NCBI GenBank assembly: GCA_963752515.1
Contig: CAVVYO010000004.1
Coordinates: 449,225 to 513,224 of the forward strand
From: Candidatus Glassbacteria bacterium
Lineage (GTDB): Bacteria; Gemmatimonadota; Glassbacteria; GWA2-58-10
Length of the DNA stretch: 64,000 bases
Direction of reading: 5' to 3'
Both the position numbers and the translations under genes were made by a program. Shown piece by piece: positions 4,227 to 53,593 of this stretch. Within the stretch, counting starts at the first letter, position 1, and the number at the start of each line of letters is the position of its first letter. The notes under the pieces were generated by a model. That model was not told the DNA's origin and did not search any database. It saw only the letters and a program-made list of their open reading frames with translations.

Positions 4227-4242
4227 GGCAAACCACGTGCCA
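4227..4242 (-). promoter_or_regulatory. Sigma54 (RpoN) -24/-12 promoter for the hook operon
   Basis: The minus strand reads TGGCACGTGGTTTGCC, which fits TGGCAC-N5-TTGCW with GG/GC spacing correct. It sits ~45-60 nt upstream of the candidate starts at 4183/4168. Confidence 0.55.
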
Positions 4243-15904: not shown

Positions 15905-15991
15905 GCCGGCGTGGTGGAATTGGTAGACACACGGGACTCAAAATCCCGCGGGTGTGAGCCTGTGTCGGTTCGACTCCGACCGCCGGCACCA
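15905..15991 (+). tRNA. tRNA-Leu (anticodon CAA), CCA encoded
   Basis: GCCGGCG acceptor stem pairs with CGCCGGC. The anticodon loop is CTCAAAA. It has a long variable arm (CGGGTGTGAGCCTGTG), a T-arm GGTTCGACTCC, and a 3-prime ACCA. Confidence 0.9.
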
Positions 15992-31451: not shown

Positions 31452-32490
31452 CAGCGCTTGCGTTTCTGGAACAGCACGGCGACAATGATGATCAGCGCCG
31501 GTGAGCATCAGCCGGCTGGCTTCGCCCACCGCGTTGATGCTCAGGATCTTTTCCAGGTAGCCGATGGTCAGGTCCCGAGCAGGGTCAGCCAGATCCCGCC
31601 GCGCCCGCCCTGCAGGCTGGTGCCGCCGATCACCACGATCGCGATCGCGGTCAGCTCGTAGCTGATCCCCGCCTCGGGGTCGCCCTGCAGCTCCTGGGCG
31701 GCCTGGCAGATCCCGGCCAGGGCGCAGAACAGCCCGCTCAAGGCGTAGGCCAGCAGCTTGACCCGGCCCACCGGCACGCCCGAAAGGCGCGCGGCCTCCT
31801 CGTTGCCGCCGATCGCATACAGGTAGCGGCCCCAGCGCAGGCGGCTCAGCACCACCCAGCAGGCCAGCACGCAGGCCAGCAGGATCAGGGTCACCACAGT
31901 CAGATTGTCACCCAGGACCGCGGAGTTCAGCAACTCGAACACCGCGGGACGTCGCGACATACTGATAGCTGCCGTCAGGCTGCTGGACGGCGGTGGAGAT
32001 TTTCTGCCCGCCCGAAACCAGCTTGGCCAGCCCCCGGGCGAACACCATCATGGCCAGGGTGGCGATGAACGGCTGGATCGCGAACCGGGCGATCAGGCCC
32101 CCCGAAGACCGCCCCCAGCAGCGCCCGCCAGCCACGCAGACAGGCCGGGATCGCCGCCAGGGCGACCAGCCCAGGTGGATGGTCAACAGCGAGAACACCA
32201 CCGCCACCAGCGCCAGCAGGCTCCCCACCGAAAGGTCGATCCCGCCGGTGATGATCACCAGGGTCATCCCGCAGGCCAGAATCCCGAACACCGAGACCTG
32301 GCGCAGCATGTCGCGGTGGGTGCCCCACTTGAAAAACGCCCCATCGGCATTGAAAGCCATCCCCAGGGCGAACACCACCAGCAGCGACAGCAGCGCCCGC
32401 GCGGTCGGGGAACGCAGCAGCCCCCGCAGGGCCTCGCCCGAGCGACAGGGCGGTCGCGGGCCGGACCTGCGGCTCGACAGCCTGTTTCAC
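31452..32490 (-). pseudogene. Sugar ABC transporter permease (RbsC-type), at least four frameshifts
   Basis: Recognisable permease segments lie in different frames: FGILACGMTLVIITGGIDLSVGSLLAL; IQPFIATLAMMVFARGLA; RWGRYLYAIGGNEEAARLSGVPVGRVKLLAYALSGLFCALAG; ALIIIVAVLFQKRKR-stop. The GTG start overlaps the ATPase stop (GTGA). Confidence 0.75.
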
Positions 32491-34087
32491 GTTTCCTCCC
32501 CCAGCGCGGCGGCCAGGATTTTTTCCTGGGTGGCCTCGGCCCGCGGCAGAACTCGGCCGTGCACCGCCTTCCCCGGGACATCACCATGATCCGGTCGCTC
32601 AGCGCCAGCAGCTCCGGCATCTCGGAGGTGATCAGCAGGATCGCTCGGCCCTCGGCGGTCAGGCGGTCCATCAGCTGGTAGATTTCCTGCTTGACCGCCA
32701 CATCCACCCCGCGGGTAGGCTCATCCAGCAGCAGCACCCGCGGCGAGGTCTCCAGCCAACGGGCCAGCACCACTTTCTGCTGGTTGCCGCCGGAGAGGGT
32801 GCCCACCGGCTGCTCCAGGCCGGCGGCGCGCAGGTCCAGCTCCCGGGCGCGGGAGGCGGCGGCCCGGCGCTCGCCGCCGGCATCCAGCCAGCCCGCCCGG
32901 CTGAATTTTCCCAGCGCGGCCAGGCTGATGTTCTCGCGGATGCTCAGCTCCGGGATGATCCCCTCCGCTTTACGATCATTGGTGAGCAGGGCCAGCCCGC
33001 GGGCGATCGAGCCGGCCGGCGAGCGCACCGGCAATGGCGCTCCCGCCAGGGTAACCCGCCCCGCAGCTGGCGCCCCGTAGCGCCCGAACAGCCCGCCCAG
33101 CAGCTCGCTGTGGCCCGAGCCCTGCAAACCCGCCACCCCGACCATCTCCCCGGCGCGCAGGGCGAAAGAGACCCGGTCCACTGCCAATGGCCCTTTGGTT
33201 CCCCGGGCGCGCAGGGAAAAATCCTCCACCCGCAGCAGCTCCGGCCCGGGATGGGCTCCGCGGGAGGGAAACTGCTCGGTGACCGCGCGGCCGACCATCC
33301 AGCGGATCAGCTCGGGCCGCGGCAGGTCGGCGGCGGCGGCGGTGCCCACCTTGCGGCCATCGCGCAGCACCGTGATCCGGTCGGCCAGGCGGTAGATTTC
33401 CTCCAGCTTGTGGGAAATGTAGATGATCCCGCAGCCGCGCGCCTTGAGCCGCCCGATCAGCGCGAACAGGCGCTCGGCCTCGGGGGCGGTCAGGCTGCTG
33501 GTGGGCTCGTCCATCACGATCACCCGGCTGTCCAGCGACAGGGCGCGGGCGATCTCCACCAGTTGCCGCACCGGGAGCGGGCAGTCCCCCACCGGGCGCT
33601 CGAGGTCCAGCTCCAGGCCAAGGGCGCCCAGCAGCCGGCGCGCCTCGCTCCGCTGGCGGGGGCGGTCCAGCAGCAAGCCGCCCCGGGTGCGCTCCCGTCC
33701 GAGGAACAGGTTGTCGAGCCACGCTGAGCGCCGGGATCAGGGAGATTTCCTGGTAGATCACCGCCAGGCCCTGGCGGTAAGCCTGCTGGGGAGAGTCGAA
33801 CCGCACCGGCCGCAAGGGAGGCCCAGCCGCACCCGGCCCTGATACTCGGAGTGGACCCCGGCCAGGATTTTGATCAGGGTGCTCTTGCCCGCGCCGTTCT
33901 CGCCGGCGAGCACGTGCACCTCGCCCGGACGCAGCTCGAAATCCACCCCCTCCAGCACGCGCACCCCGGCGAACCGCTTGCCGATCCCCTCCATCATCAG
34001 CAGGGGCTGATCCGGTCCGGGAACAGGAACGACTTGCGCGGCGGAAGCAGGCGGCATGGGGCTGTCGTGGGAAAAGGGAACGGTCAT
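32487..34087 (-). pseudogene. Sugar ABC transporter ATP-binding protein (RbsA-type, duplicated ATPase), at least three frameshifts
   Basis: Walker [10 protein letters not shown] in frame 1. [27 protein letters not shown] in frame 2. Frame 3 holds signature/Walker B of domain 1 and all of domain 2 (LSGGNQQKVVLARWL, LLLDEPTRGVD). The C-terminal tail is shifted again near 32575. Frame changes are near 33815, 33718 and 32575. Confidence 0.8.
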
Positions 34088-38437: not shown

Positions 38438-38465
38438 TAAAGCCCCCCCGCCGGCCGGTCGATAA
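38438..38465 (+). promoter_or_regulatory. Sigma28 (FliA)-type promoter for flagellin 1
   Basis: TAAA-N16-GTCGATAA, against the consensus TAAA-N15-GCCGATAA. It lies 215 nt upstream of the ATG. Confidence 0.5.
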
Positions 38466-38637
38466 AATCTACAGCGGACCTGAGTTTCCACGGCAAGCCC
38501 ACGGCGCCCCGTCAGCGGATTGGTGTGTCCGCAAGGGCGACTGAAACCGGGAAGAGTTCCCGCCCGGGAACCAGGCGCGCGACAACAACAGCACAGATCG
38601 GGGTCTGCCGGCCCATCCCCGCGACAGAAGACCGGCT

Positions 38638-38679
38638 ATTAAGCAAGGATGCTTAATATACCATCAAGGAGGATGAAGC
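38638..38679 (+). promoter_or_regulatory. Putative CsrA-type dual GGA sites in the flagellin-1 leader
   Basis: Hairpin ATTAAGC-AAGGAT-GCTTAAT presents GGA in the loop. A second GGA lies in the SD context ATCAAGGAGGATGA. The arrangement resembles hag-type CsrA binding sites BS1/BS2. Confidence 0.35.
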
Positions 38680-40338
38680 ATGCCGCTGTCGCTCAACACC
38701 AACATCTCCGCGATTACCGCGCGGCGCAACCTGCTGCGTGTCAACGGCCAGCTCAAGACCAGCATGGAACGGCTCTCCAGCGGCCTGCGGATCAACCGCA
38801 GCGCGGACGATGCCGCCGGGCTGACCATCGCCGAGAACCTGCACGCCCAGGTGGTCGGCCTCAACCGGGCGGTCACCAACGCCACGGATGGGATCTCGCT
38901 GATCCAGACCGGCGAGGGCGCGATGCAGGAGGGCAGCGCCATCCTGCATCGCATCCGCGAGCTGTCGGTGCAGGCCGCCAATGGCACCCTCACCAGCCGC
39001 GACCGCCAGGCCATCCAGAACGAGGTCTCGCTGCTGATCGACGAGATCAACCGCATCGCCTCCACCACCACGTTCAACAGCATCAACCTGCTCAACGGCA
39101 ATTCCTCGGCCCTGATCTCCACCAGCAACCCGGCCGATGTCAACGGGATCGTGGTCGGCGATGTGGGCCAGGGCGGAATCTACTCGGTGACAATCCAGGT
39201 GAGCGAGTCGGCGGATGGCGGACGGCTGTTCGGCGCCAGCCAGGTGATCGGCACCGAGATCCTGACCCGCACCGGCGAGAACGGCCGGGTCTACGATGCC
39301 GCCCCGGAAACCACCCTGCAATCGCTCAGCCAGTTCCGGAACTTCAATGTGTTCGATGGCGGGATCCGCAGCATCACCCTGAACCTGAGCTCGGACGGCG
39401 ACAACAAGATCGCCGACATCGAGCTCTTCGCCACCGACACCCTGGAGATCGCCCGCGCCCGGATTTCCCTGGCGATCAACGACCCCGACCAGACCACCGA
39501 CCTCGGGCTCGGCGGGGGGATCTCCTACGGGGCGCCGCTGGTGAAGATTGCCTCGGTGGGCCAGGCCCCGGGCGGGGGCAGGCCCGGCGGGACCGTGCTG
39601 CTGATCGCCAATCCCGAGCCCGGCCGTCGCCTGGTCTGGGGCGGCGATGACAACACCCTCTCGGCCCTGGGCTTCACCACGATCCAGGAGTCCCAGCCGC
39701 CGGTGTTCTCGGTGACCGTCAACAATCTCTCCAGCCCGTTCCAGCAGCTGATTCCCCGCACCCTCAAGGTCTTCGGCGACCGGGCCTCGGGCCTGATCGA
39801 CGGCGTGGATGTCAACTTCCGCACCACGCTCAACATCAGCCTCTCCGGGGCCACCAGTACCCGGGTCGGCTCGTTCGAGGTCCCCGAGCTGGTGGTCAGC
39901 CGCCACAGCGACAACTCCAGCTTCCTGCTCGAAGTCACCCCCCGGCCGCTGGTGTTCCAGATCGGCGCCAACCAGGGGGATGTGCTCTCCACCAGGATCA
40001 GCGATATCAGCGCCGCCAGCCTGGGGATCAAGGGGATCAACATCGTCGACCGCACCCTGGCCGGGGAGTCGATCCGCACGGTCGACCTGGCCCTCAAGCG
40101 GCTCAATGCCGAGCGGGCCAACCTCGGCGCGGTCCAGAACCGCCTCGAGAGCACGATCCGCTCGCTGCGGGTCGCCTCGGAGAACCTCACCGGCAGCGAG
40201 AGCCAGATCCGCGACCTGGATTTCTCGGACGAGATCGTCAACTTCACCTCGCTCCAGGTGCTGTCCCAGTCGGCCACCACCTTCCTGGCCCAGGCCAACG
40301 CCCTGAGCGGATCGGTGCTGACCCTGCTCGGCGGATGA
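38680..40338 (+). CDS. fliC: Flagellin (paralogue 1, 552 aa)
   Basis: N-terminal MPLSLNTNISAITARRNLLRVNGQLKTSMERLSSGLRINRSADDAAGLTIAENL and C-terminal ...GAVQNRLESTIRSLRVASENLTGSESQIRDLDFSDEIVNFTSLQVLSQSATTFLAQANAL are canonical D0/D1 flagellin segments. Confidence 0.95.
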   Translation: MPLSLNTNISAITARRNLLRVNGQLKTSMERLSSGLRINRSADDAAGLTIAENLHAQVVGLNRAVTNATDGISLIQTGEGAMQEGSAILHRIRELSVQAANGTLTSRDRQAIQNEVSLLIDEINRIASTTTFNSINLLNGNSSALISTSNPADVNGIVVGDVGQGGIYSVTIQVSESADGGRLFGASQVIGTEILTRTGENGRVYDAAPETTLQSLSQFRNFNVFDGGIRSITLNLSSDGDNKIADIELFATDTLEIARARISLAINDPDQTTDLGLGGGISYGAPLVKIASVGQAPGGGRPGGTVLLIANPEPGRRLVWGGDDNTLSALGFTTIQESQPPVFSVTVNNLSSPFQQLIPRTLKVFGDRASGLIDGVDVNFRTTLNISLSGATSTRVGSFEVPELVVSRHSDNSSFLLEVTPRPLVFQIGANQGDVLSTRISDISAASLGIKGINIVDRTLAGESIRTVDLALKRLNAERANLGAVQNRLESTIRSLRVASENLTGSESQIRDLDFSDEIVNFTSLQVLSQSATTFLAQANALSGSVLTLLGG

Positions 40339-41019
40339 CCAGCCCGGCAGCCATGAAATGCAGACCCGCAACGACCGGATTCGAGCCTATATAATGTAGC
40401 ACCCCTGCCCCGCGCGCCCGGCCTGGCTCGCGGATGCAGGCGGCGATCCGCCGGCGGGACGGGCCGTGAACGCGCGGTCCTCCGGCTTTTGTCCCTGGCT
40501 CGCCCCGCAAGCGGCCGGATCGCATCTCGAGCCGCAGCTTGCCTTTCACCCTGAGGGTCATGGATGACCCCTGCCGGACAAGGAGGTCCACCCTATGCCA
40601 GCCGGTTAGCCAACCATCACAGCCACGCCGCGTGATCTTTCGCGGCAGGATGGCAGGCGTTCGCGCCCGCTCCGGCGAGGGGGGATGTTCTCCCGCGCCA
40701 CGGCCCAGCCTCAAGGGCTGTCAGCGCCGCCCGCGCCCCCGCCCATCCTGCCCCCCGGGGAGCGCCGTGCCCAAGCGGCCGGTGCTCCGGGAAACGGCGA
40801 AGCCTTGCCTGTCGCGGATCCGGTGGACCAAACCACCCCGGAAGCCGCGGCGCAAGCGGAAGCGCCACGCCCCAAAAGGACGCGAGCACGCCCGGGCGGC
40901 CCCCCGGAGCCGCGACCGGTTTCGCGCCGGAAGCGGGCCGGAGGCGGTCCGCCCGACACCCGAATCACCCCGCGGGCGGGGATGGAACCTCGCCCCTCAC
41001 GCATCAAGGAGGATGAATC

Positions 41020-42651
41020 ATGGCCGGACTAACCCTGAATACCAACATCGCCTCGATCAACACCCGCCGCAACCTGCTGCTGCAGAACAAGCGGGTCACC
41101 AAGAGCATGGAGCGCCTCTCCTCGGGCCTGCGGATCAACCGCGCCGCGGACGATGCCGCCGGGCTGACCATCGCCGAAAACCTGCGGGCGCAGGTGATCG
41201 GCCTGAGCCGGGCGGTGGCCAACTCCCAGGATGCGATCTCGCTGATCCAGACCGCGGAAGGCGCGCTGGGCGAGGCCCATAACGTGCTGCAGCGGATGCG
41301 GGTGCTGGCGATCCAGTCCGCCAACGGCACCCTGACCAGCCGTGACCGCAAGGCCCTGCAGGACGAGGTGTTCCAGTTGATCGACGAGGTCGACCGGATC
41401 GCGATGACCACCTCGTTCAACTCGATCAACCTGCTCAACGGCAATGTCGGGGCGCTGGTCTCGACCGATGATCCCAACAACATCACCGGGATCGTGGTCT
41501 CCGATGTCGGCGAGGGCGGTACTTTCTCGGTGGCGATCAATGCGATCGATGTCGGCAAGATGCAGGTGCAGAACAGCCAGACTTTCGTGCGGGTCAACGA
41601 GGCGGGCGAACCGCTGGATGCCAACCTCAACACCCAGCTGCAGTCGATCAGCCGCTTCCAGGACTATGGGGTGTTCACCGGCGGCCAGGATTCGGTGACC
41701 CTGACCATGAGCTCGGATGTCGACAACAAGATCACCACCGTGCAGGTCTTCGCCACCGACACCCTGGGCCAGTTGATGGGCAAGATCTCGCTGGCGATCA
41801 ACGACCCCGACCAGACCACCGACCTCGGGCTGGCCCCGGGCGTGTCCGACGGCGCCAAGCTGGTGTCGATCTCCAGTGTCGGCCTGGCCCCCGCCGGCGG
41901 CGCTGTCGGTGCGACCAGCCTGGTGATCACCACCCCCGAGCCGGGCCGCAAGATGGTCTTCGGCGGCGAGTCCTCGCTGCTGACCGCCCTGGGCTGCAAC
42001 GAGATCCAGAGCGCGGTTCTGCCGGTGTTCTCGCTGACTGTCAAGGACGTGGGCGAGGGAACCATCGCCACCAAGAGCACCCGGGTCTATGGCAACCGGG
42101 CCAGCAACCTGATCCGCGGCGTGGACATCTCCTTCCGCACCACGCTCGACATCTCGCTCAGCTCGACCCAGACCGATCCGGTCGGGGCTTATCGCGTCTC
42201 CAAGCTGGTCCAGAACCAGCGCCCCGGCCCGGATGGATTCATCATCCAGGTTTCCCCGCGGCCGCTCAGCTTCCAGATCGGCCCGAACCACGGCAACTTC
42301 ATCAACACCCAGATCGGCGACATGACCGCCCGCTCGCTGGGGATCCAGGGCCTGAACATCTCCGACCAGTTCCTGGCCCAGGAGACGATCAAGCCGATCG
42401 ACAAGGCGATCGACCTGGTCAGCGCCCAGCGCTCCACTCTCGGCGCGGTCCAGAATCGACTGGAGAGCACGATCGCCAACCTCAGCGTGGCGTACGAGAA
42501 CCTGAGCGCCTCCGAGAGCCAGATCCGCGACCTGGACTTCTCCCACGAGGTGATCGAGTTCACCTCGGCGCAGATCCTGACCTCCTCGGGGACCAGCTTC
42601 CTGGCCCAGGCCAACGCGCTGAGCAACAACATCCTGACCCTGCTGCAGTAA
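41020..42651 (+). CDS. fliC: Flagellin (paralogue 2, 543 aa)
   Basis: Canonical flagellin N- and C-terminal domains. The central domain is colinear with the other three paralogues (ISRFQDYGVFTGG, FATDTLGQ, TTPEPGRKMVFGG). Confidence 0.95.
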   Translation: MAGLTLNTNIASINTRRNLLLQNKRVTKSMERLSSGLRINRAADDAAGLTIAENLRAQVIGLSRAVANSQDAISLIQTAEGALGEAHNVLQRMRVLAIQSANGTLTSRDRKALQDEVFQLIDEVDRIAMTTSFNSINLLNGNVGALVSTDDPNNITGIVVSDVGEGGTFSVAINAIDVGKMQVQNSQTFVRVNEAGEPLDANLNTQLQSISRFQDYGVFTGGQDSVTLTMSSDVDNKITTVQVFATDTLGQLMGKISLAINDPDQTTDLGLAPGVSDGAKLVSISSVGLAPAGGAVGATSLVITTPEPGRKMVFGGESSLLTALGCNEIQSAVLPVFSLTVKDVGEGTIATKSTRVYGNRASNLIRGVDISFRTTLDISLSSTQTDPVGAYRVSKLVQNQRPGPDGFIIQVSPRPLSFQIGPNHGNFINTQIGDMTARSLGIQGLNISDQFLAQETIKPIDKAIDLVSAQRSTLGAVQNRLESTIANLSVAYENLSASESQIRDLDFSHEVIEFTSAQILTSSGTSFLAQANALSNNILTLLQ

Positions 42652-42810
42652 AAAAAGTCGCAAGTGGTCCGCGGCACCCCCTGGCCTCGGCCGGCCCCCT
42701 CCGGCCGGGGCCGGGAGCCGCGTCCCGCCTCCGGCCTCCCCGGCCCGCGAGAAAACTCTTCCCCCAGGATGACAGCTTTCCGCCTCCGCCGGTTTTTTCT
42801 CCAAAAATTC

Positions 42811-42837
42811 TAAACTTTCCCCCCCTGGTGCCGATAT
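42811..42837 (+). promoter_or_regulatory. Sigma28-type promoter (TAAA-N15-GCCGATAT), ~715 nt upstream of flagellin 3
   Basis: TAAA at 42811-42814, an exact 15-nt spacer, then GCCGATAT at 42830-42837. Confidence 0.6.
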
Positions 42838-42987
42838 ACCAGAATAGTTGGCAATATCACCGGGCAAATTCGTTAACTGCGGCGACCAGATAACTCGAAT
42901 TGTGCCTCCGGCCGGGAAGCTGCACCCTTCCCAGGGACGTAGTCCGCCCGCCGGAAGCACGCCGGATCATCACACTCAATCGAAGGC

Positions 42988-43026
42988 AATAAAAAAAGGC
43001 TTTTGGAGCCCCCCTCCAAAAGCCTT
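42988..43026 (-). terminator. Minus-strand rho-independent terminator inside the fla2-fla3 spacer
   Basis: 13-bp stem AAGGCTTTTGGAG/CTCCAAAAGCCTT. On the minus strand it is followed by TTTTTTTATT. On the plus strand no U-tract follows. Confidence 0.55.
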
Positions 43027-43551
43027 AGGCAGCACAACAACATCGGTCGGAAAAAGGTCTCTTCGCAAGTGGCCCTTTCAGTGATGTGTATTGTGCCGTA
43101 TTGCGCTTGCCATTACTGCAATACACATGCCACTTCGCGAACAGCCCTCCCGGATCTTAGGATCCTCCCCGACCGAATAATTGCCCAGGCCGCGCCATGG
43201 CGTCAACAGCGGACTTCCGCAGGGATTGCGGCTGTCCGGCGCCGGCGCCTGAAAAAACCGCCCGTTGCCGCCGACGCCATTTGTCGCCGCCGGCGGCGGA
43301 AAAAATCACCGGCATCGGGAAAAAAGCAGCTGGCCCTGTGACCATACACCATAAATGGAGAAAAGCCAAACAGACGCTCATCCGTTCACTGACGAACCAA
43401 CCCCAGGAGGAACTGCATGAACCTAAAACGCTAGCCTGGTACGGGAAAAACTTCAAGGTTGCCGCCGAAACTCAGGTTCAACTTGAACTTTCTCATGGGC
43501 AAACGTTCTGTTGGGTAAGGATACCTTAACAGACGATCAAGGAGGATAACG

Positions 43552-45183
43552 ATGGGTTTAACCCTTAATACAAATGTTGCGGCGATCAATGCAAAACGGA
43601 ACCTGCTGATCAACAACCGCGCCGTGGGCAAGTCCCTCGAAAAGCTGTCTTCCGGTTTGCGGATCAACCGCGCCGCCGATGACGCCGCCGGCCTGAGCAT
43701 TGCCGAGAACCTGAGAGCCCAGGTGGTCGGTCTCGGTCGGGCGGTGGCCAACTCCCAGGATGCGATCTCGCTGATCCAGACCGCCGAGGGCGGCCTGAAC
43801 GAGACCCACAACATCCTGCAGCGCATCCGCTTCCTGACCGTGCAGTCGGCCAACGGCACCTACACCAGCCGCGACCGCCTGGCGATCCAGGACGAGGTCG
43901 GGCAGTTGCTGGACGAGGTGAACCGGATCGCCTCGACCACCACCTTCAACAGCATCAACCTGCTCAACGGCAATGTCGGCGCGCTGGTCAGCACCGATGA
44001 CCCGGTCAACAGCATCCAGGGCCTGGTGGTCGGCGATGTCGGCGATGGCGGCACCTTCTCGGTCGCGGTCAGCGCGATCTCGGTCGGCAAGCTGCAGGTC
44101 CAGAACTCCGAGCTGTTCGTCACCATCAAGGAGAACGGCGACCCGATCGATGCCAACGCCAACACCCAGTTGCAGTCGATCAGCCGCTTCATGGACTTCG
44201 GCGTGTTCACCGGCGGCATCGACTCGGTGACCCTGACCATGAGCCAGAACGGCAGCAACGATGTGACCGAGATCCAGATCTTCGCCACCGACACCCTGGG
44301 CGAGCTGGCCCGCAAAGTCTCCCTCGGGATCAACGATCCCACCCGGGTGAGCGACCTGGGCATGGCGGCGACGATCTCCGACGGCGCCACTCTGGTCTCG
44401 ATCGGCCGGATCGGTCTGGCCCCCGCCGGCGGCGGCGCGGGCACCACCTCGATCGTGATCACCACCCCGGAGCCTGGCCGCAGCATCGCTTTCGGCGGCG
44501 AGTCCTCGATCCTCTCGGCTCTCGGCTTCAACGAGATCCAGAAGGCAGTGGCCCCGGTGTTCTCGATCACGGTCAAGGACATCGGCCAGGGCGAGATTCC
44601 GGACCGGGTGGCCAAGGTCTACGGCGACCGGGCCAGCGGCCTGGTCCAGGGCGTGGACCTGCGCTTCCGCACCACGCTGGACATCTCGCTCAGCGCCACC
44701 GCCAAGACCACGATCAACGCCTACAATGTCTCCAAGGTGGTCAACAACTCCCTGGCCGGCCCGGACGGATTCGTGGTCCAGGTCTCCCCGCGGCCGCTCA
44801 GCTTCCAGATCGGCCCGAACCACGGCAACTTCCTCAACACCCAGATCGGCGACATGTCCGCCCGCTCGCTGGGGATCGACGGCCTGAACCTGTCGGATCA
44901 GTTCATCGCCCAGGAGTCGATCAAGTCGGTGGACCAGGCGATCAGTCAGGTCTCCACCCAGCGCGCCGCGCTCGGTGCGGTCCAGAACCGCCTGGAGAGC
45001 ACCATCGCCAACCTGAACGTGGCGCACGAGAACCTGAGCGCTTCCGAGAGCCAGATCCGCGACCTGGACTTCTCGGATGAGGTGATCAACTTCACCTCGC
45101 GCCAGGTGCTGGTCAGCTCGGCCACCTCGTTCCTGGCCCAGGCCAACTCGCTGAGCAACAACATCATGTCGCTGATCCGCTAA
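43552..45183 (+). CDS. fliC: Flagellin (paralogue 3, 543 aa)
   Basis: Canonical flagellin termini, same length as paralogue 2 and colinear with it throughout. Confidence 0.95.
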   Translation: MGLTLNTNVAAINAKRNLLINNRAVGKSLEKLSSGLRINRAADDAAGLSIAENLRAQVVGLGRAVANSQDAISLIQTAEGGLNETHNILQRIRFLTVQSANGTYTSRDRLAIQDEVGQLLDEVNRIASTTTFNSINLLNGNVGALVSTDDPVNSIQGLVVGDVGDGGTFSVAVSAISVGKLQVQNSELFVTIKENGDPIDANANTQLQSISRFMDFGVFTGGIDSVTLTMSQNGSNDVTEIQIFATDTLGELARKVSLGINDPTRVSDLGMAATISDGATLVSIGRIGLAPAGGGAGTTSIVITTPEPGRSIAFGGESSILSALGFNEIQKAVAPVFSITVKDIGQGEIPDRVAKVYGDRASGLVQGVDLRFRTTLDISLSATAKTTINAYNVSKVVNNSLAGPDGFVVQVSPRPLSFQIGPNHGNFLNTQIGDMSARSLGIDGLNLSDQFIAQESIKSVDQAISQVSTQRAALGAVQNRLESTIANLNVAHENLSASESQIRDLDFSDEVINFTSRQVLVSSATSFLAQANSLSNNIMSLIR

Positions 45184-45260
45184 GCAGGTCGATCCAGGGA
45201 ATGACGGTCTTGGCAGCCAGGGGTAAGACATGAACGGACAGTCGTTCTTGGCACCGCTCT

Positions 45261-45308
45261 AAAAAAAAGCCGGCTCCGGGTTCTGGCTACCCGGAGTCCG
45301 GCTTTTTT
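45261..45308. terminator. Bidirectional rho-independent terminator after flagellin 3
   Basis: AAAAAAAA-GCCGGCTCCGGGT-loop-ACCCGGAGTCCGGC-TTTTTT. Confidence 0.7.
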
Positions 45309-45310
45309 CT

Positions 45311-45350
45311 GGCAAAAAGCGGGCTTATGAAGCTGCAACTTCATAAGCCC
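45311..45350 (-). terminator. 12-bp hairpin with CTGCAA loop; reads as a minus-strand terminator
   Basis: GGGCTTATGAAG-CTGCAA-CTTCATAAGCCC. On the minus strand it is followed by GCTTTTTGCC. Confidence 0.45.
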
Positions 45351-45692
45351 TGCACCCTGGACTTCCGCGAAGAAGCTCCCGGGGTCGTGGGGACTCCGGG
45401 AAAGAGGTGCAGCCGACGTTTGTGCAAGTTGCGTACCAGAAGCCACTCCAAGCCGGACCGGGGTGGCTTCCGGTTTTTCCGGCCGGCACTCCTCCGCGTT
45501 GCAACAGTTTGCATGTCAAGCTGTTGCAACAACCGAACGCCATGAACCCGGCCGAGCTCAGCCCCTCCCGGCCCGACCTTCTCCGGCAAATCCTTCCGCT
45601 TTCCCGCGCCCGGCCGCCGCTGCACTTTTTGCCCCGGGCCGGCTGCAACATTTTCCCCGCCGGGGCTGTCCCGCGGTCTCCCAAAAAAGTAC

Positions 45693-45719
45693 TAAAGCTT
45701 ACCTTTGGGCTGCCGATAA
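45693..45719 (+). promoter_or_regulatory. Consensus sigma28 promoter (TAAA-N15-GCCGATAA), ~790 nt upstream of flagellin 4
   Basis: TAAA at 45693-45696, an exact 15-nt spacer, then GCCGATAA at 45712-45719. Confidence 0.7.
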
Positions 45720-46511
45720 AGGAAGCAGGGCGATAGTATCCGGTTTTCCGAACGCTCCGCGCCACGGGACGAAGCTGCAACTTCTCCGCGGCGCTCGACT
45801 GAAACGATCCGCGAAGAAGCTCGAAGGACAACGGGGTGCCGTTCCAGGAGAAGTGGTTTGTGCATTTGTATCGCACGCCCGCTCCTGCCGCTTTAGCTTC
45901 GCCTTCCCGTCTTTCTTCCGAGCCGCATTCCTCCGCGGACAATCAATCGACCGTAACACAGGCAGCACCCGGCGACAGCCTTCCACCCGTGTGGTAAACG
46001 CTGACCGCCGGCCCAGCCGGTGCATTGCCCGGGCGTGAACCGCAAGCTGCAACTTGCCGCGCCCGGTGGGGAACATCCGCGAAGAAGCAGCTTGGGGGTA
46101 AGTTCCGCCAGAGCGGCGGGATCGCGCCGGGTCCGGATTCCGGCTTGTCCGCGGTCCCGCCGCCGCCATCGCCCCACCTCCTCCTTTGCCGATCCCTTCC
46201 CACGCTCCCGGCTCCAGCACACGACAAACAGCCGCAACTGTTTGTAGAGGGTTGAACCAGTTGTTGTTGGACCAGCTTCCTCCCGGTTTCCCGCCAAATG
46301 TTGTCTGGTCGCCGCCGATTGACATTTGCCCGCCGGTGACAGGGAGGAAGGATCAGCCCGGGAAGCTCCCCTCGGGTCGGCCCGCCGCGGCTCTGCGGCA
46401 AGCGCCGGCCCGGGGCCTCCCGGCGCCGGGACCGAGTTGTGCCATGCGAATCGGGAACATGGAGCAGCAGCGAAGGGAGCACCACATCTACCCGGAATCA
46501 AGGAGGATCTG

Positions 46512-48122
46512 ATGCCTGGACTGTCGATCAACACCAACATCCCGGCGATCCTGGCCCGGAGGCAGCTCAAGATCGCCACCGGCCGGATGACCACTTCTCT
46601 GGAAAGCCTGGCCTCGGGCCTGCGGATCAACCGCGCCGCGGACGATGCCGCCGGGCTGACCATCGCCGAGAACCTGCGCGCCCAGGTGGTGGGACTCGAC
46701 CGGGCCATCTCCAACGCCCAGGACGGGATCTCGCTGATCCAGACCGCGGAAGGGGCCCTCGCCGAGAACACCAGCATCCTGCAGCGCATCCGCGAGCTGT
46801 CGGTGCAGTCGGCCAACGGCACCCTGACCAGCCGGGACCGCCTGGCGATCCAGAACGAGGTCAACCAGTTGATCGACGAGGTGGACCGCATCGCCGAGAC
46901 CACCGAGTTCAACTCGATCAAGCTGCTCAACGGCAATGTCGGCGCTCTGGTCAGCACCTCCGACCCGGAGAGCATCGATGGGATCGTGGTGGGCAATGTC
47001 GGCACGGGCGGGGTCTACTCGATCACGGTCAGCGCCCAGGACCTGGGCCGCCTCCAGGTGCAGACCTCCGAGGTCTTCGTCACCATCGACTCCAACGGCA
47101 ATGTCTCCAATGCCGCGGACTCGACCCAGCTCCAGTCGATCAGCCGCTTCCAGGACTTCGGGGTTTTCGGCTCCGGCGTCGACAGCGTCACGATCAAGCT
47201 CGGCACCGATGCCTCGACCAACCTGGCCGATGTGACGATGTTCCGCACCGACACTTTGCAGGATGTCGCGGCGCGCATCTCGCTGGCGGTCAACGACACC
47301 ACCAGCAGCAAGGACCTGGGGCTGGGCGGGGCCGCCGCGGTGGGCGACCAGCTGGTCGGGATCGCCACCAATGTCGGCAGCGAGGATGTCACCCAGATGT
47401 TCGTCCTCACCCCCGAGCCCGGGCGCCGGATCACTTTCGGCGGCGATGCCTCGGCCCTCTCCGCCTTCGGCTTCTCCGAGATCCAGGGGGCCAAGAGCCC
47501 GATCTTCTCCCTGACTGTCACCGACATCGGGGCCAACGGCGGGGCCACCACCACCAAGAGCCTAAAGGTCAGCGGCAACCGGGCCAGCGGGCTGATCAAC
47601 GGCGTGGACCTCAGCTTCCGCACCAACCTGGACATCTCGATCGGCGGCAGCTCCACCCTGGCCGGGTTCAGCGTGGTCCGGCCGCTCTCGATCACCGGCA
47701 GCGCCAATTTCGTGCTGCAGGTGTCCCCGCGCCCGCTGACCTTCCACATCGGCTCCGGCGCCGGGCAGACCCTGTCGACCCAGATCAATACCATGAGCGC
47801 GAGGGCCCTCCAGGTGGACAAGATCAACCTGACCGACCAGAACCTGGCCAACCAGGCCGTGCGGGTGGTGGACAACGCGCTCAATGTGGTCTCGGCCCAG
47901 CGCTCCACCCTCGGCGCGGTGTCCAACCGCCTCCAGAGCACGATCTCCAACCTGGAAGTGGCCAACCAGAACCTCCAGGCCAGCGAGAGCCAGATCCGCG
48001 ACCTGGACTACTCGGACGAGATCATCGAGTTCGTCACCGCCCAGATCCTCAACACCTCGGCCACCAGCTTCCTGCGCCAGGCCAACGCGGTGTCGAACAA
48101 CGTACTGCAGCTGCTCTCCTGA
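46512..48122 (+). CDS. fliC: Flagellin (paralogue 4, 536 aa)
   Basis: AGGAGGA SD 4 nt before the ATG at 46512. MPGLSINTNIPAILARRQLKIATGRMTTSLESLASGLRINRAADDAAGLTIAENL plus a canonical C-terminus. The ORF-track start at 46326 is an upstream extension. Confidence 0.93.
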   Translation: MPGLSINTNIPAILARRQLKIATGRMTTSLESLASGLRINRAADDAAGLTIAENLRAQVVGLDRAISNAQDGISLIQTAEGALAENTSILQRIRELSVQSANGTLTSRDRLAIQNEVNQLIDEVDRIAETTEFNSIKLLNGNVGALVSTSDPESIDGIVVGNVGTGGVYSITVSAQDLGRLQVQTSEVFVTIDSNGNVSNAADSTQLQSISRFQDFGVFGSGVDSVTIKLGTDASTNLADVTMFRTDTLQDVAARISLAVNDTTSSKDLGLGGAAAVGDQLVGIATNVGSEDVTQMFVLTPEPGRRITFGGDASALSAFGFSEIQGAKSPIFSLTVTDIGANGGATTTKSLKVSGNRASGLINGVDLSFRTNLDISIGGSSTLAGFSVVRPLSITGSANFVLQVSPRPLTFHIGSGAGQTLSTQINTMSARALQVDKINLTDQNLANQAVRVVDNALNVVSAQRSTLGAVSNRLQSTISNLEVANQNLQASESQIRDLDYSDEIIEFVTAQILNTSATSFLRQANAVSNNVLQLLS

Positions 48123-48232
48123 AGATGGAGCAGGTGAGCGGCGGCACTGACAGCGGCAGTCCCCGCCCGCGGCGCGACGGCTGACCCGGCGCGCCGCGGG
48201 TCCGTCACCAGCCAGTGCCAGCGGAGGTGCCC

Positions 48233-48625
48233 ATGTCCGACCGGATCATGGCCCAGGAAGCGGCGGTGCGGCAGGCGCTCCTGTCGGCCCTCCCCAAATC
48301 CGCCGGCGGCCGCGCCGCCCCGAAATCCGAACCGGCCGACCCGCCGGCCGAGGCGCAGCGCTCCGCGGCCGCCGCGCGGCTCGCCGAGGAGCAGGCCCTG
48401 ACTCAGGAGCAGTCGGCCCGGCTGATCGCGGGCCTCAACGACCTGTTCCGCATTTTCGGAGTCGAGGCCCGCTACTTTATCGATCCGCAGACCGAGACCC
48501 TGGTGGTCCAGCTCCGCGACAACGAGACCCGTAAACTGATCCGCCAGATCCCGGACGAGGAGTTCATCTCGCGCATCGCCCACACCCGCGAGCTGATCGG
48601 CCTGCTGATCGACCAGCGGGCGTGA
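48233..48625 (+). CDS. flaG: Flagellar protein FlaG
   Basis: The C-terminal segment FGVEARYFIDPQTETLVVQLRDNETRKLIRQIPDEEF matches the FlaG family. It follows the flagellin array. A GGAGG SD precedes the ATG at 48233; the alternative GTG is at 48215. Confidence 0.8.
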   Translation: MSDRIMAQEAAVRQALLSALPKSAGGRAAPKSEPADPPAEAQRSAAAARLAEEQALTQEQSARLIAGLNDLFRIFGVEARYFIDPQTETLVVQLRDNETRKLIRQIPDEEFISRIAHTRELIGLLIDQRA

Positions 48626-48670
48626 AGCAGCACCCAACGGCAGGCGCCGGCGCGGCACCTCAGATTGACA

Positions 48671-48814
48671 CCCCCCGGCCCCGCTGTAAGCGGGGCCACC
48701 CCTCCAGGGGGGAGTTAACAGCATGCCGCCCAACCGGTTTTGCCGATGCCGGGGCGAAGCGGGAACACTCCCCCCTGGAGGGGGGTGGCCCGATGCCATC
48801 GGGCCGGGGGGTGT
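48671..48814. repeat. Two inverted copies of GC-rich repeat module C
   Basis: CCCCCCGGCCCCGCTGTAAGCGGGGCCACCCCTCCAGGGGGG, then GGGGCGAAGCGGGAACACTCCCCCCTGGAGGGGGGTGGCCCGATGCCATCGGGCCGGGGGGTGT. The same module occurs at 6808-6874. Confidence 0.75.
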
Positions 48815-48911
48815 AAGGATAGTCCCGGCCTAGCGGACAAACAACAAAAGAGCCACCGCCCCTATCCGGGCGATGGCTCTCGTCATTTCCGCTGCACTTG
48901 CTCCCGCGGCC

Positions 48912-50667
48912 TCAGGAACGCTTCCGGCCCCGGCCGGACCCGCCCCGGCCCTTGCCCGGCGCCACGCTCCCGCCCCCGGCCACCGCCGCCGCCGGCTGCT
49001 TGGCCGGGAGCGCGGGACCGTGGTACTTGCGGTTGATGTAGAGCTGCTGGGCCATCTGGAACAGGTTGAAGAAGGTGTAGTACAGCACCAGCCCGGACGG
49101 GAAATTCAGGAAGATGAAGGTCATGAAGAACGGCATGATGTAGAGCATCGGCTTCATCTTCGGGTCGGTCTGGGTCGGCGTGAGCTTCTGCGAGATGAAA
49201 GTGGTCGCGCCCATCACCACCGGCAGGATGTAGAACGGGTCGGGCTGGCTCAGGTCGTTGATCCAGCCGAACGCCGCGGCGCCGCGGAACTCGATGGTGC
49301 GCTGGAAGACATAGAACAGCGCGATGAACACCGGCATCTGGATCAGCAGCGGCAGGCAGCCGCCCAGCGGATTGACCTTCTGCTCGCGGTACAGTCGCAG
49401 GGTCTCGGCCTGCATCTTCTGCGGGTCATCCTTTAGCCTCCTTCATCTCGGCCATCATCGGCTGGATCTGCTGCATCCTGATCTGGCTCTTGGTGCTCTT
49501 GATGGTCAGGGGATAGAACACCACCTTGATCAGCAGGGCGAAGATCACCAGGATCAGCGCGTAGTTGGCGATGTAGCGGTGGAGCCAGAGCATGATCTCG
49601 AGCGAGATCTTGGTGAAGGGCTGGACGATCACCCAGCCGTACTCGAGGATCTTCGGCAGCCCGAAGTTGAGCGCCTTGACCTGCTGGTAGGACTGCGGCC
49701 CGACATACACCGAGTACGCGACCGGCTCGACACCTTCCGGCACCGGGAAGAAACCGCTGAAAGCCAGCTCGCGGGTCTCGGCGCTCCCGGCGGCGGACAG
49801 CCCGGTCATCGGCCGGTCGGGGACAAAGAACGTGGCCAGGAAGTACATGCTCTTAAGGCCGCCCCAGAGCACCGGCTCGTCCAGGGTCGGGGTCCAGCCG
49901 CCCTCGCCCAGGTCTTTCAGGTCCTTGGAAACCACCTCGCCATCGACATAGTAGGCGACCCCGTAGTCTTTGAAATCGGTCTTGGGGTCCTTCTCGTTGG
50001 AGACCAGGGTCGGGCCGAGCATCACCTCGAGGCGGTTGTCCCGGGCCCCGTGGAGCACGGGCGGCAGGTGCAGCTCGGCCTCGATCAGGTAGGAGTCGTG
50101 GCGGAAGCCGTAGACCAGCCGCAGCGTTTCGCCCCCCGGCAGGCGGTGGACCAGCTCCAGCGTCCCCTGCGGGTTGTTCGGCCCCAGTTCCAGCCGGCGG
50201 GTGCTGGGCTCGAACAGGCGCTCGCCCAGCTCGACCGGCTGGCTCGAGCCTTGCAGGTGCAGGCGGGCCTGGAGGAACTGGCTGCCGGTGAGCGGGACCA
50301 GTTGGACCGGCAGCCGCCGGTTGTCATCCTCCTGCTGCCCGGCGAACGACTGGTACTGCTTGAGCCAGGCCCGGGTCATCACCCCGCCGCGGGTGATGAA
50401 GTGGTACTCGTAGAGCTCGGAGCTGACCACCACCGTATCGGCGGCAACGGCTTCCATCGCGGCGGAGGGCTGCTCCCCCAGTTCCAGGGCGGGCGCGCCG
50501 GGCGTGGTCGCGGGCGCCGATGACCGCTGAACCGGCGCGGCGGTGTCCGCCTGCTGCTGCCCGGCCGTGGGCGGCATCCCCGGTTTCGGCTTGGGCGCCA
50601 GGAACACCAGGTAGCCCATCCAGACCGCGAACACCAGCAGCATGGCCAGGGCCGATCTCTTTTCCAT
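48912..50667 (-). CDS. yidC: Membrane protein insertase YidC (single 1-nt frameshift near 49425-49432)
   Basis: The N-terminal fragment runs [19 protein letters not shown]...[18 protein letters not shown]-stop. The C-terminal fragment [34 protein letters not shown]... follows in an adjacent frame. Removing one G in GCTAAAGGATGACCCG restores ...[12 protein letters not shown]... Confidence 0.85.
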
Positions 50668-50744
50668 GTTTTTTCCCTTATGGTTGCGGCAATCCGGTTG
50701 AACCGGCCGGAGGACCCTCGGCCGCCCGAACGGTAGCGACTGGT

Positions 50745-50972
50745 TCAGGGCAGATCGACTCCGCCCGGGTGGAAGGGGTGGCACTTGAGCAGCCGTTTCG
50801 CCGACCGCCAGGAACCTCGCAACGGCCCGTACTTGATCAGGCTCTGTCTGGCGTATTCCGAGCAGGAGGGGTAGAAGCGGCAGGCAGGCGGCAGCAGCGG
50901 TCCGATCGCCGCCTGGTAGACCTTCACCAGGGCCAGGAGCACCGCCCCCAGCGCTTTCTCGATGAGCTTCAT
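50745..50972 (-). CDS. yidD: Membrane protein insertion efficiency factor YidD
   Basis: [71 protein letters not shown] is the diagnostic YidD sequence. Confidence 0.9.
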
Positions 50973-51340
50973 TTCCGGTCCTCCCCCCCGCCCGCTTCCG
51001 GGGCGCGCGGCGGGACCCGGCCCTCCAGCCGGGAGAAACGCTCCCGCAGCCCCGCGAAATCCAGCTCGTAGGCCCAGGGCTTGACCCGGACCACCACTTC
51101 CCAGCCGCGGGCCAGGGGCGCCGAAGTCCGCAACAGCTCCTGGAGCCGGCGCTTGAGACGGTTGCGGAGCACGGCGGTGCGGCCGAATTTCGGGACCACC
51201 ACCGCCGCCCGGCTGCGCCCGCCATCCGGCAGGGCCAGCAGGTGCAGCCGCAGGGAGTCTTGCGCCAGGCGCTGTCCCTCGGCCATCACCCGCTTGATCT
51301 CGCTGCCGCGGCGGATGGAGATTTTTCGCGCCAGTCCCAT
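50969..51340 (-). CDS. rnpA: Ribonuclease P protein component
   Basis: 123-aa basic protein ([24 protein letters not shown]) between rpmH and yidD. Confidence 0.88.
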
Positions 51341-51885: not shown

Positions 51886-53593
51886 GTGACCTTTTCGGAA
51901 GGGATCGCGCCCGCGATGGAAGAGATGCTCAGAACCGCCGTGGACCAGGCTCTGCGGAAAATGGGAATCGAGAGCCCCCCGGACTACGTGGTGGAGAAAC
52001 CCAAGGACCCGCGCCACGGCGACCTGGCGGCCAATGTCGCCTTCCTGCTGGCCCGCAGCCTGCATCGCAAGCCCCAGGAGATCGGCCTGGAGCTGGTCGA
52101 GAAGCTGGAGCTGGACAGCCCCTACCTGCAAAAGATCGAGGTGGCGCCCAACGGCTTCATCAATTTCTTCATCGACCCCCGCTGGTGCATCGACCGGCTG
52201 GCCGAGGTCCAGCGCGAGGGCGAGCGCTACGGGCTGGGCCAGGCCCTGGCCGGGCGCAAGGTAATGGTCGAGTTCGTCAGCTCCAACCCCACCGGCCCGC
52301 TGACCATCGGCCATGGCCGCCAGGCGGTGCTGGGCGACTGCCTCAGCTCGGTGCTGGAGGCGCAGGGGGCGGCGGTCTGCCGGGAGTACTACTACAACGA
52401 TGCCGGCAACCAGATGAACATTCTCGGCCGGAGCCTGCGCGCCCGCTACGCCCAGCTCTTCGACCCGGCTTTCCCTTTCCCGGAGAACGGCTACAAGGGC
52501 GACTACATGCTGGAGATCGGCCCGCAGTTCGCCGCCATCCACGGCGAGCGCTACCGTCCCGCCGGCCCGGATGACCCGGAGCCCGACCCGGCAGACCCTC
52601 GGAACTGTTCCGCGGTTTCGCCGCCGAACGCATCCGCCGGTGATCGATCAGGACCTCAAGGAGTTCCGCATACGGTTCGATGTCTGGAGCCTGGAGAGCG
52701 GGCTTTACACCGAGGGCAAGATCGACAGCGCTGCTGGCGCTGCTGAAGGAGCGGGGCCTGAGCTATGAGCACGAGGGCGCGGTCTGGCTGCGCACCGCCG
52801 AGTTCGGCGACAGCGAGGACCGGGTGATTGTCAAGAGCACCGGCGAGCCGACCTATTTCCTGCCCGACCTGGCCTACCACATGGACAAGCACGAGCGCGG
52901 CTTCGATGAAGTAATCAATATCCACGGGGCGGACCACCACGGCTACGCGCCCCGGATGCTGGCCGGGATGAAAGCCCTGGGCTACCCCGAGGGCTGGCTG
53001 CGTTACGTGATCCACCAGATGGTCAGTTTCAAGGAGGGCGGGAGGCGGTGAAGATGTCCACCCGCGCCGGCCAGCTTTATCATGCTCAAGGACCTGTGGA
53101 CCAGGTCGGGGTGGATGTGGCCCGCTATTTCTTCGTGATGCGCAAGGCCGACAGCCATCTGGTTTTCGACCTGGACCTGGCCCGCAAGCAGTCCAATGAG
53201 AACCCGGTCTATTACTGCCAGTACGTCCATGCGCGGATCTGCAGCCTGACCCCCACCGCCCGCGAGGCCGGGCTGTGGAACGGGGACCGTCGAAATGTGG
53301 AAGGTTACAGCCCTCGCGCCTCGAACACCCCGAGGAGCTGGAGCTGATCAGCCACCTGACTCGATTTCCCGGCCCTGGTGCGCCGTGCCGCCCTGGCGCT
53401 GGAGCCGCACCACATGCCCTATTTCCTGGAGGAGCTGGCCCGCCGTTTCCACGCCTGGTACCAGCGCCACCGCATTGTCGACCGCGAGCAGCCGGAGCTT
53501 TCGCGCGACCGTCTTTACCTGGCCGACTGCGTGCGGTCCGCGATGGCCAACGGGCTGCGGCTGCTGGGAATCACCGCCCCGGAAAAGATGTGA
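51886..53593 (+). pseudogene. argS: Arginine--tRNA ligase, reading frame broken many times (probably assembly indels)
   Basis: ArgRS segments occur in successive different frames: PKDPRHGDLAANVAF...SSNPTGPLTIGHGR (HIGH-type motif); IDQDLKEFRIRFDVW; LLKERGLSYEHEGAVWL...GEPTYFLPDLAYH...HGADHHGY; KMSTRAG; [14 protein letters not shown]...[13 protein letters not shown]; EPHHMPYFLEELARRFHAWY...GITAPEKM-stop. The likely true start is the ATG at 51916. Confidence 0.85.

Follow-up and report, generated by a model that had tools for sequence, protein, structure and literature searches.

Filaments built from several flagellins are common, and the ordering of their paralogues is only partly understood, the known solutions being promoter classes, CsrA/FliW and FlbT/FlaF. 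FliX, MotR, FlgO and UhpU of Escherichia coli are sigma-28-dependent small RNAs (sRNAs) derived from untranslated regions, short processed fragments with distant targets. UhpU is also covered in PMC12704781. In Campylobacter and Helicobacter (flaB versus flaA) and in Vibrio, flagellin paralogues are split between the sigma-54 and sigma-28 tiers through different promoters (PMC3930126). The CsrA-FliW-flagellin switch, described for hag of Bacillus subtilis and flaA of Campylobacter jejuni, relies on the binding of CsrA to a layout that combines a hairpin carrying GGA in its loop with a second GGA in the Shine-Dalgarno (SD) sequence (PMC4894983). Furthermore, the C. jejuni sRNAs FlmE (CJnc230, RpoN-dependent) and FlmR (CJnc170, FliA-dependent) link the RpoN and FliA tiers post-transcriptionally, FlmE being processed from the flgE mRNA and targeting flgM and Cj1387c (PMC11187230). 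In the present study, we analysed a 64-kb stretch of DNA (the window) from a Glassbacteria lineage, which holds an array of four flagellin genes, fla1 to fla4, followed by flaG, the flagellins being separated by spacers of exactly 681, 900 and 1328 nucleotides (nt; spacers 1, 2 and 3, respectively).

On balance, we hold it probable that these spacers constitute a conserved non-coding control region, in which long leaders started from sigma-28 promoters are controlled by small RNAs of the sigma-54 class. The positions, the orientation and the complementarity of the elements are conserved, and from these we infer every transcript, sigma-factor dependence and direction of regulation. The extra length of the leaders would house sRNA genes on the opposite strand together with sequences pairing with those RNAs, CsrA-type sites and mini open reading frames (mini-ORFs). 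One of the RNAs, sRNA-2, encoded within the fla3 leader, would pair with that same leader as a perfect cis-antisense, while the other, sRNA-A, coming from an insulated cassette after fla3, would pair with two repeats (copies B and C) in the fla4 leader; in addition, the fla3 leader would, through 21 nt at its 5' end, pair with the fla4 leader at one or two boxes. Being of the class that apparently drives the hook operon, the sigma-54 sRNAs would thus act on the fla3 and fla4 leaders and alter their stability, processing or translation, and the flagellin paralogues would be made at different times or levels despite promoters that are all of the sigma-28 type.

The closest parallel is found in FlmE and FlmR, in that small RNAs, here predicted ones, are tied to the middle (sigma-54) and late (sigma-28) tiers of flagellar expression, stand beside flagellar structural genes and would tune flagellin output. 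The resemblance is functional only, there being no homology in sequence or structure (no Rfam match), and, unlike the C. jejuni RNAs, each predicted sRNA is equipped with a promoter and a terminator of its own, is encoded on the opposite strand between the flagellins and is complementary to flagellin leaders. The starts of fla1 to fla3 share the two-site GGA layout with hag and flaA, and by analogy CsrA may bind here; however, the leaders of hag and flaA measure tens of nt, as opposed to 700-800 nt in the present array, and additional GGA hairpins precede a mini-ORF in spacer 1. As with the E. coli RNAs, a candidate RNA would arise from the untranslated region of a sigma-28 flagellar transcript, but it would be the 5' part of a very long leader and complementary to the leader of the neighbouring flagellin. 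Finally, several flagellin paralogues and, as predicted, both sigma-54 and sigma-28 are involved here as in the flaA/flaB systems, whereas all detectable flagellin promoters of this array are of the sigma-28 type, and the sigma-54-type ones point in the opposite direction and run into terminators about 100 nt on.

The array was compared with related loci fetched by homology, about 20 in number and drawn from about 12 distinct assemblies, across which the order fla1-4(-flaG) and the long spacers are kept. Spacer 1 is about 950-1570 nt long in the relatives (681 nt in the window), spacer 2 is 780-930 nt and spacer 3 is 1350-1600 nt. In blastn and MAFFT comparisons, the spacers resolve into blocks of 72-98% identity lying between variable stretches rich in insertions and deletions. 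Orthologues of each flagellin paralogue are 80-86% identical across assemblies as against only 56-73% between paralogues inside one genome, and the array is therefore older than these lineages. Candidatus Glassbacteria, Gemmatimonadota or Gemmatimonadales are the labels carried by the nearest proteins, Glassbacteria being a class within Gemmatimonadota (PMC11596202). Pfam recognised Flagellin_N and Flagellin_C in all four flagellins and the FlaG domain in the fifth gene. Together with the gene coordinates, this bears out the four colinear flagellins, their starts and the trailing flaG listed in a preliminary description of this DNA, which had been made from its letters alone; the spacer lengths given there are exact, and we uphold its judgement that the architecture is unusual.

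For a sigma-28 promoter we took TAAA at -35, a spacer of 15 ± 1 nt and GCCGATAA at -10, with transcription expected to begin 7-8 nt past the -10 element. The pattern TAAA-N14-16-NCCGATA has two matches in the 64 kb (42811-42837 and 45693-45719), against 0.00 expected; these are the distal sites that the preliminary description had placed about 715 and 790 nt upstream of fla3 and fla4, the distances being 715 and 792 nt, and its fla1 candidate, put at 215 nt, was found 214 nt before the ATG. All 17 loci that cover the region have the fla3 site, 540-745 nt upstream of the gene, and nearly all relatives that cover the other have the fla4 site, 765-975 nt upstream; it went undetected in one locus, L002. 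Across the relatives TAAA and GCCGATA of these predicted sites are conserved and the 15 nt between them vary by genome, and conserved elements with a drifting spacer are the pattern expected for a working bipartite promoter. The fla1 promoter of the relatives reads TAAAGTTT-N11-TGTCGATA and lies about 250 nt upstream of fla1.

Spacer 1, before fla2, gave no sigma-28 match in any locus, and a terminator-like hairpin after fla1 is absent in 13 of 15 loci. With no promoter of its own for fla2 and mostly no terminator for fla1, fla1 and fla2 therefore probably form one operon, in which spacer 1 is probably intercistronic. Most loci have a terminator-like hairpin 3' of fla3, and in 12 of 12 loci no terminator stands between fla4 and flaG. 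Between the sigma-28 sites and fla3 or fla4 we found no conserved terminator on the + strand, only weak, non-homologous sites in some loci. We thus infer three putative units, each started by sigma-28: fla1-spacer 1-fla2, a leader of about 710 nt followed by fla3, and a leader of about 790 nt followed by fla4 and flaG.

On the opposite strand, spacers 2 and 3 are predicted from their sequence to encode two paralogous small RNAs. The promoter criterion was that of the sigma-54 type, GG-N10-GC within TGGCAC-N5-TTGCW. TGG and TTGC are invariant in all distinct units (13/13 in spacer 2 and 16/16 in spacer 3), the N5 inside the motif occurs in 12 versions in spacer 2 and 10 in spacer 3, and GG-N10-GC is retained even in two loci that fail the strict pattern. 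In its strict form, TGGYAY-N5-TTGC, the motif occurs four times in the window against 0.23 expected. A strong hairpin with T5-9 follows on the same strand, 100-150 nt past each of these promoters, and the predicted RNAs extend from about 43105 to 42990 (sRNA-2) and from about 45412 to 45314 (sRNA-A). Both predicted units thus possess what defines an sRNA gene (its own promoter, a length of 50-300 nt, a Rho-independent terminator on the same strand and no ORF), and each is syntenic and present in a single copy per genome. Since sRNA-2 lies downstream of the spacer-2 sigma-28 promoter, a + strand transcript running from 42845 towards fla3 would be its perfect antisense. sRNA-A is flanked by the fla3 terminator on one side and the 45440-45478 element on the other, and the spacer-3 sigma-28 promoter stands 255 nt beyond, without overlap.

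Covariance models were built from the two units, R1 from sRNA-A and R2 from sRNA-2. Each has exactly one strong minus-strand match per Glassbacteria locus, at 87-115 bits for R1 and 102-132 bits for R2, while neither model gained a match from 18 unrelated flagellin loci or from the rest of the 64-kb window. The two models match each other weakly (24-38 bits), which indicates that sRNA-A and sRNA-2 are paralogous. In the sRNA-A alignment, 97.8% of the cells pair, compared with 36-60% when the partners are slid; several invariant G-U pairs would read as A-C mismatches on the + strand, and the hairpin region is more stable folded on the minus strand in 16 of 16 sequences.

A third copy of the sigma-54 motif, TGGCACGTGGTTTGC (TGGCACGTGGTTTGCC), is a perfect TGGCAC-N5-TTGC (4242->4228) on the minus strand, within 4227-4242 of the window. 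About 45 nt downstream of it stands an ATG, at 4183, which opens an ORF continuing into fliK (Flg_hook) and flgD. The hook genes occupy 700-1392 and 1417-3429 of the minus strand, 35 kb from the flagellin array, and the perfect consensus before fliK/flgD suggests that this lineage uses sigma-54 for its hook genes. No conserved site for an upstream activator (enhancer-binding protein, EBP) was recognised at the sRNA promoters. A pair of GTTGCAAC octamers does occur 60-100 bp upstream of the sRNA-A promoter; the palindromic arrangement GTTGCAAC-N17-GTTGCAAC (45498-45535) was considered as an activator site and rejected, as it is not conserved in relatives.

The link from sRNA-A to fla4 is provided by a repeat unit on the + strand of spacer 3, in which a hairpin with a CTGCAA loop is followed by the box TCCGCGAAGAAGC. 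Every spacer 3 contains exactly three CCGCGAAGAA boxes, all of them in + strand orientation and syntenic, and repeats A, B and C occur only in spacer 3 within the 64 kb. Copy A belongs to the sRNA-A gene; copies B and C are found 90 and 360 nt past the spacer-3 sigma-28 promoter, which would put them within the putative fla4 leader. Both are complementary to sRNA-A via the invariant 13-nt box and the loop (UUGCAG versus CUGCAA), and the top duplexes of sRNA-A outside itself in the 10-kb region are those with C (-72 kcal/mol) and B (-69 kcal/mol), against a background of -42 ± 10. The stems adjacent to the loop differ by copy (GAAG/CTTC, GAAA/TTTC, GCAG/CTGC, GCGG/CCGC) with pairing preserved, and in L002 both copies A and B have CTGTAA. 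The minus-strand sigma-54 promoter is found only at copy A; in some loci B has TTGCAC, with no GG at -24. That B and C are read in the + strand sense is deduced from the orientation of the promoter. For copy C, MAFFT with RNAalifold misaligned the variable outer stems.

A further complementarity connects the fla3 and fla4 leaders. The 21-nt antibox, present once per locus and always at the same position, would occupy about nt 35-55 of the spacer-2 sigma-28 transcript and is the reverse complement of one or two GTTATCTGGTCGCCGCCGT-like boxes situated 140-340 nt upstream of fla4; a poorer match, the weak box GGTTGCCGCCG, is located about 95 nt upstream of fla3. In every genome 17-19 of the 21 positions pair, and 84% of the antibox/box cells are paired in register as compared with 29-58% when slid. 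The best duplex partner of the spacer-2 5' segment is the fla4 box.

Obviously, several observations weigh against this interpretation. The promoters, RNA ends and pairings are all predictions, and the loose form of the sigma-54 pattern occurs in the window four times with 3.65 expected, which is not above chance. The seven compensatory cells of sRNA-A are equalled by 17 of 500 shuffles; the three of the antibox/box (L087, L090 and L042) are equalled by 23-47 of 500, so that the box and antibox rest on conservation and not on covariation. With elements as highly conserved as these, the covariation statistics are weak, and the overall case is one of positional conservation. Pair types and fold energies leave the strand of copies B and C ambiguous, and identical repeats and inverted 19-mers could equally be protein-binding DNA sites. 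In some relatives, moreover, a weak + strand hairpin with a T-run occurs about 245-285 nt past the spacer-2 sigma-28 promoter, and the spacer-2 transcript might therefore end early in some lineages. Finally, fla3 or fla4 may have a proximal promoter.

Carried further, the favoured interpretation would turn the locus into a self-contained RNA circuit, with sigma-54-class sRNAs acting as cis-antisense on the fla3 leader and in trans on the fla4 leader, and with the fla3 and fla4 leaders pairing with each other; the succession and proportions in which the four sigma-28 flagellins are made would then depend on RNA pairing and not on promoter class. The parts of such a circuit would derive from a flagellin duplicated together with a downstream sRNA, and its trans targets would be copies of the sRNA sequence retained in the fla4 leader in the opposite transcriptional sense. 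We regard this extended version as a rather doubtful proposal.

Among the explanations that compete with control of long leaders by sRNAs, the one that survives best, although we judge it unlikely, is that the distal sigma-28 promoters make separate sRNAs, such as an antibox RNA of about 150-250 nt antisense to sRNA-2, while fla3 and fla4 use unrecognised proximal promoters and have ordinary leaders. It is consistent with the fla1 leader of just about 215-235 nt and with the fact that the spacer-2 + strand is most conserved in the first 90 nt or so after the promoter; the weak hairpins with T-runs mentioned above would supply the ends, and a conserved block, AGAAATTTTTACC...GGAGAAAATT, about 170-215 nt before fla3, is a possible promoter of unknown type. 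Yet no sigma-28, sigma-54 or good sigma-70 match stands near fla3 or fla4 in any locus, the terminator-like sites of the + strand are weak, non-homologous and absent from the window and from many loci, and repeats B and C and the boxes, 200-700 nt downstream of the spacer-3 sigma-28 site, would be left without another promoter to transcribe them.

Less probable still is the idea that the conserved islands work mainly as DNA, the box, the antibox, the CTGCAA hairpins and the GAAA..TTCC blocks serving as binding sites through which transcription factors or nucleoid proteins regulate the sigma-28 promoters, and the sigma-54-like motifs being incidental. An invariant 13-nt box and a 19-nt inverted box/antibox would look alike under recognition of double-stranded DNA, near-palindromic blocks do lie upstream of the sigma-28 sites, and the weak covariation fits as well. 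What argues for RNA instead is that the stems beside the conserved loops change in sequence and stay paired, that the invariant G-U pairs are strand-specific, that compensatory box/antibox changes occur in L087 and L090, that in every locus the -24/-12 motifs are followed, at the expected spacing and on the matching strand, by terminator hairpins with T-runs, and that a sigma-54 promoter of consensus form stands before the window's hook operon.

Conserved blocks, GAGAAATCTCTTCCC and GAAAAATTTTCC (42751-42765 in the window), lie upstream of the sigma-28 promoters, in the relatives about 55 nt before the -35 element in spacer 2 and about 90 nt before it in spacer 3. The block AGAAATTTTTACC, which resembles them, is found about 200 nt upstream of fla3. 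All three may be sites of an unknown DNA-binding regulator.

The preliminary description had seen no convincing ORF in the spacers and had offered, besides long leaders and unannotated RNAs, the option of decayed genes. We searched the spacers accordingly. No stop-to-stop frame of at least 50 amino acids (aa) in the spacers was conserved as protein over its full length in relatives by tblastn, the matches being short pieces that fall on nucleotide islands or reach into the flanking flagellin genes. The search for gene remnants that had been suggested gave none of flagellin or FlaG in the spacers (best E-value 0.07), and the coding signature of the window's real genes (high GC at the third and low GC at the second codon position) is absent from every spacer ORF. 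In the spacers of the relatives, gene callers gave either nothing or inconsistent small hypothetical ORFs without a Pfam match. The Rfam check, also suggested, was run with Rfam 15 at gathering and permissive thresholds and matched no family, riboswitches and flagellar RNA motifs included, in the spacers, the window or nine relatives, apart from a tRNA, the sole match in the window at the gathering threshold; at E <= 5 the region gave chance-level matches only. We thus consider it very improbable that gene decay, unconserved junk, mobile repeats or an assembly artefact accounts for the spacers: high GC does yield many long spurious ORFs, parts of each spacer do vary in sequence and length and genes elsewhere in the window are frameshifted, but there is no conservation at the protein level, no flagellin remnant and no codon signature, the islands of 80-98% identity are syntenic in about 12 independent assemblies, and the repeats are restricted to syntenic places in spacer 3, on which ground REP-like (repetitive extragenic palindromic) elements were rejected as well. 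The absence of a convincing ORF therefore stands and the decayed-gene option falls, whereas long leaders and unannotated RNAs are each retained in part. The preliminary description covered the + strand only; it does not include the minus-strand units, the repeats, the box and antibox, the mini-ORFs, or the lack of a fla2 promoter and a fla1 terminator.

Additional elements were found close to the translation starts. A GGA-loop hairpin together with a GGA-containing SD occurs at the starts of fla1, fla2 and fla3, while at fla4 the SD site alone is clear. The fla3 proximal leader is 95% identical in relatives. It also follows a mini-ORF of 5-6 codons, which was present at -106 to -138 in 18 of 20 loci and undetected in L086 and L091; where it is present, its SD and ATG are invariant and its peptide is variable. 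The mini-ORF of spacer 1 (ATG at 40595, stop ending at 40609) likewise has a strong SD, an invariant ATG and a variable peptide of 3-4 aa, and of the two hairpins preceding it the first has a covarying stem and the second is invariant. Of the features of leader-peptide attenuation, short conserved ORFs with SD sites are present, but regulatory codons and alternative terminator/antiterminator hairpins are not, as the peptides vary and no + strand terminator follows. Neither csrA nor fliW lies within the 64-kb window or the fetched flanks.

Several side observations concern the individual loci and the surroundings of the array. In L048 (2875-3465; also in L088), a 134-nt unit present in 4.4 copies at 94% identity begins within the 3' end of fla1 and copies the final codons of fla1 several times into spacer 1; the spacer 1 of this lineage owes its 1571 nt to this repetition. 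In L090 (4535-8619), two gene calls or two tblastn pieces take the place of fla2 and likewise of fla3, showing each gene to be split or frameshifted, and the predicted sRNAs and promoters are intact. In the window, fla4 ends at 48122, the ORF that reaches 48184 being in a different frame. At 48648-48881, 3' of flaG, there follow a long GC-rich palindromic region and, on the minus strand, a hairpin resembling a terminator (48881->48848), which probably serves the convergent yidC; a weak sub-threshold match to che1 RNA near 48648-48881 is likely due to chance. Several housekeeping genes look broken (48912-51225, minus; 51886-52746, +; 57657-60152, minus; 31568-34087, minus): yidC is divided into two adjoining ORFs, truncation affects ArgRS as well as PolA in its DNA_pol_A domain, and ABC transporter pieces are fragmented. 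This suggests either assembly frameshift errors or true pseudogenes; the flagellins are intact. The tRNA gene is located at 15905-15988 (+). The features of the array are collected in Table 1.

Table 1. Genes and predicted regulatory elements of the flagellin array, in window coordinates (arrows give the direction of minus-strand elements).
Feature	Position	Strand	Remarks
Sigma-28-type promoter of fla1, TAAA-N16-GTCGATAA	38438-38465	+	214 nt before ATG
fla1 leader hairpin TTAAGC-AAGGA-TGCTTAA (GGA in loop), then SD AAGGAGGA	38639-38673	+	nearly invariant, 11 loci
fla1, flagellin, 552 aa	38680-40338	+	Pfam
Spacer-1 GGA-loop hairpins GGGTC-ATGGAT-GACCC and GGAC-AAGGAG-GTCC, then 4-codon mini-ORF	40555-40609	+	
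fla2, flagellin, 543 aa	41020-42651	+	Pfam; no own promoter found
Conserved GC hairpin after fla2	42680-42715	+	terminator-like, T-run variable
Sigma-28-type promoter, TAAA-N15-GCCGATAT	42811-42837	+	-10 ends 715 nt before fla3 ATG
Antibox ACTGCGGCGACCAGATAACTC	42876-42896	+	near 5' end of sigma-28 transcript
Predicted sRNA-2 unit, RNA of about 115 nt	42990-43132	-	promoter, terminator, model R2
sRNA-2 terminator hairpin + T7	43026->42996	-	
sRNA-2 sigma-54-type promoter TGGCATGTGTATTGCA	43132->43117	-	
fla3 leader mini-ORF: SD AGGAGG, ATG 43417, MNLKR, stop	43405-43434	+	
fla3 proximal leader: weak box GGTTGCCGCCG, GGA-loop hairpin (43510-43530), SD AAGGAGGA (43539-43546)	43457-43546	+	
fla3, flagellin, 543 aa	43552-45183	+	Pfam
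fla3 intrinsic terminator: A-run, hairpin, T-run	45262-45308	.	
Predicted sRNA-A unit, RNA of about 100 nt	45314-45438	-	includes repeat copy A; promoter, terminator, model R1
sRNA-A terminator hairpin + T-run	45350->45321	-	
Repeat copy A, box, within sRNA-A gene	45364-45376		+ strand coordinates
sRNA-A sigma-54-type promoter TGGTACGCAACTTGCA	45438->45423	-	
Covarying conserved hairpin with A-run/T-run flanks, directly upstream of sRNA-A promoter	45440-45478	.	bidirectional, terminator-like
Sigma-28-type promoter, perfect TAAA-N15-GCCGATAA	45693-45719	+	-10 ends 792 nt before fla4 ATG
Repeat copy B, putative fla4 leader: CTGCAA-loop hairpin (45759-45794), box TCCGCGAAGAAGC (45808-45820)	45759-45820	+	
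Repeat copy C, putative fla4 leader: nested CTGCAA-loop hairpin, box TCCGCGAAGAAGC (46076-46088)	46028-46088	+	
Box GTTGTCTGGTCGCCGCCGA, putative fla4 leader	46298-46318	+	complementary to spacer-2 antibox
fla4 SD AAGGAGGA	46500-46507	+	
fla4, flagellin, 536 aa	46512-48122	+	Pfam
flaG	48215-48625	+	Pfam FlaG

The locus illustrates how much escapes notice if only one strand of intergenic DNA is read. The analysis yields two new candidate RNA families with their covariance models, as well as a set of predicted pairings that are open to compensatory mutation. If the proposed control of the leaders is true, a barely studied, uncultured lineage would have arrived at a different solution to the ordering of several flagellins, in which very long sigma-28 leaders would offer landing sites to sRNAs of the sigma-54 tier, and the targets of these sRNAs would have arisen by duplication of the sRNA sequence itself.

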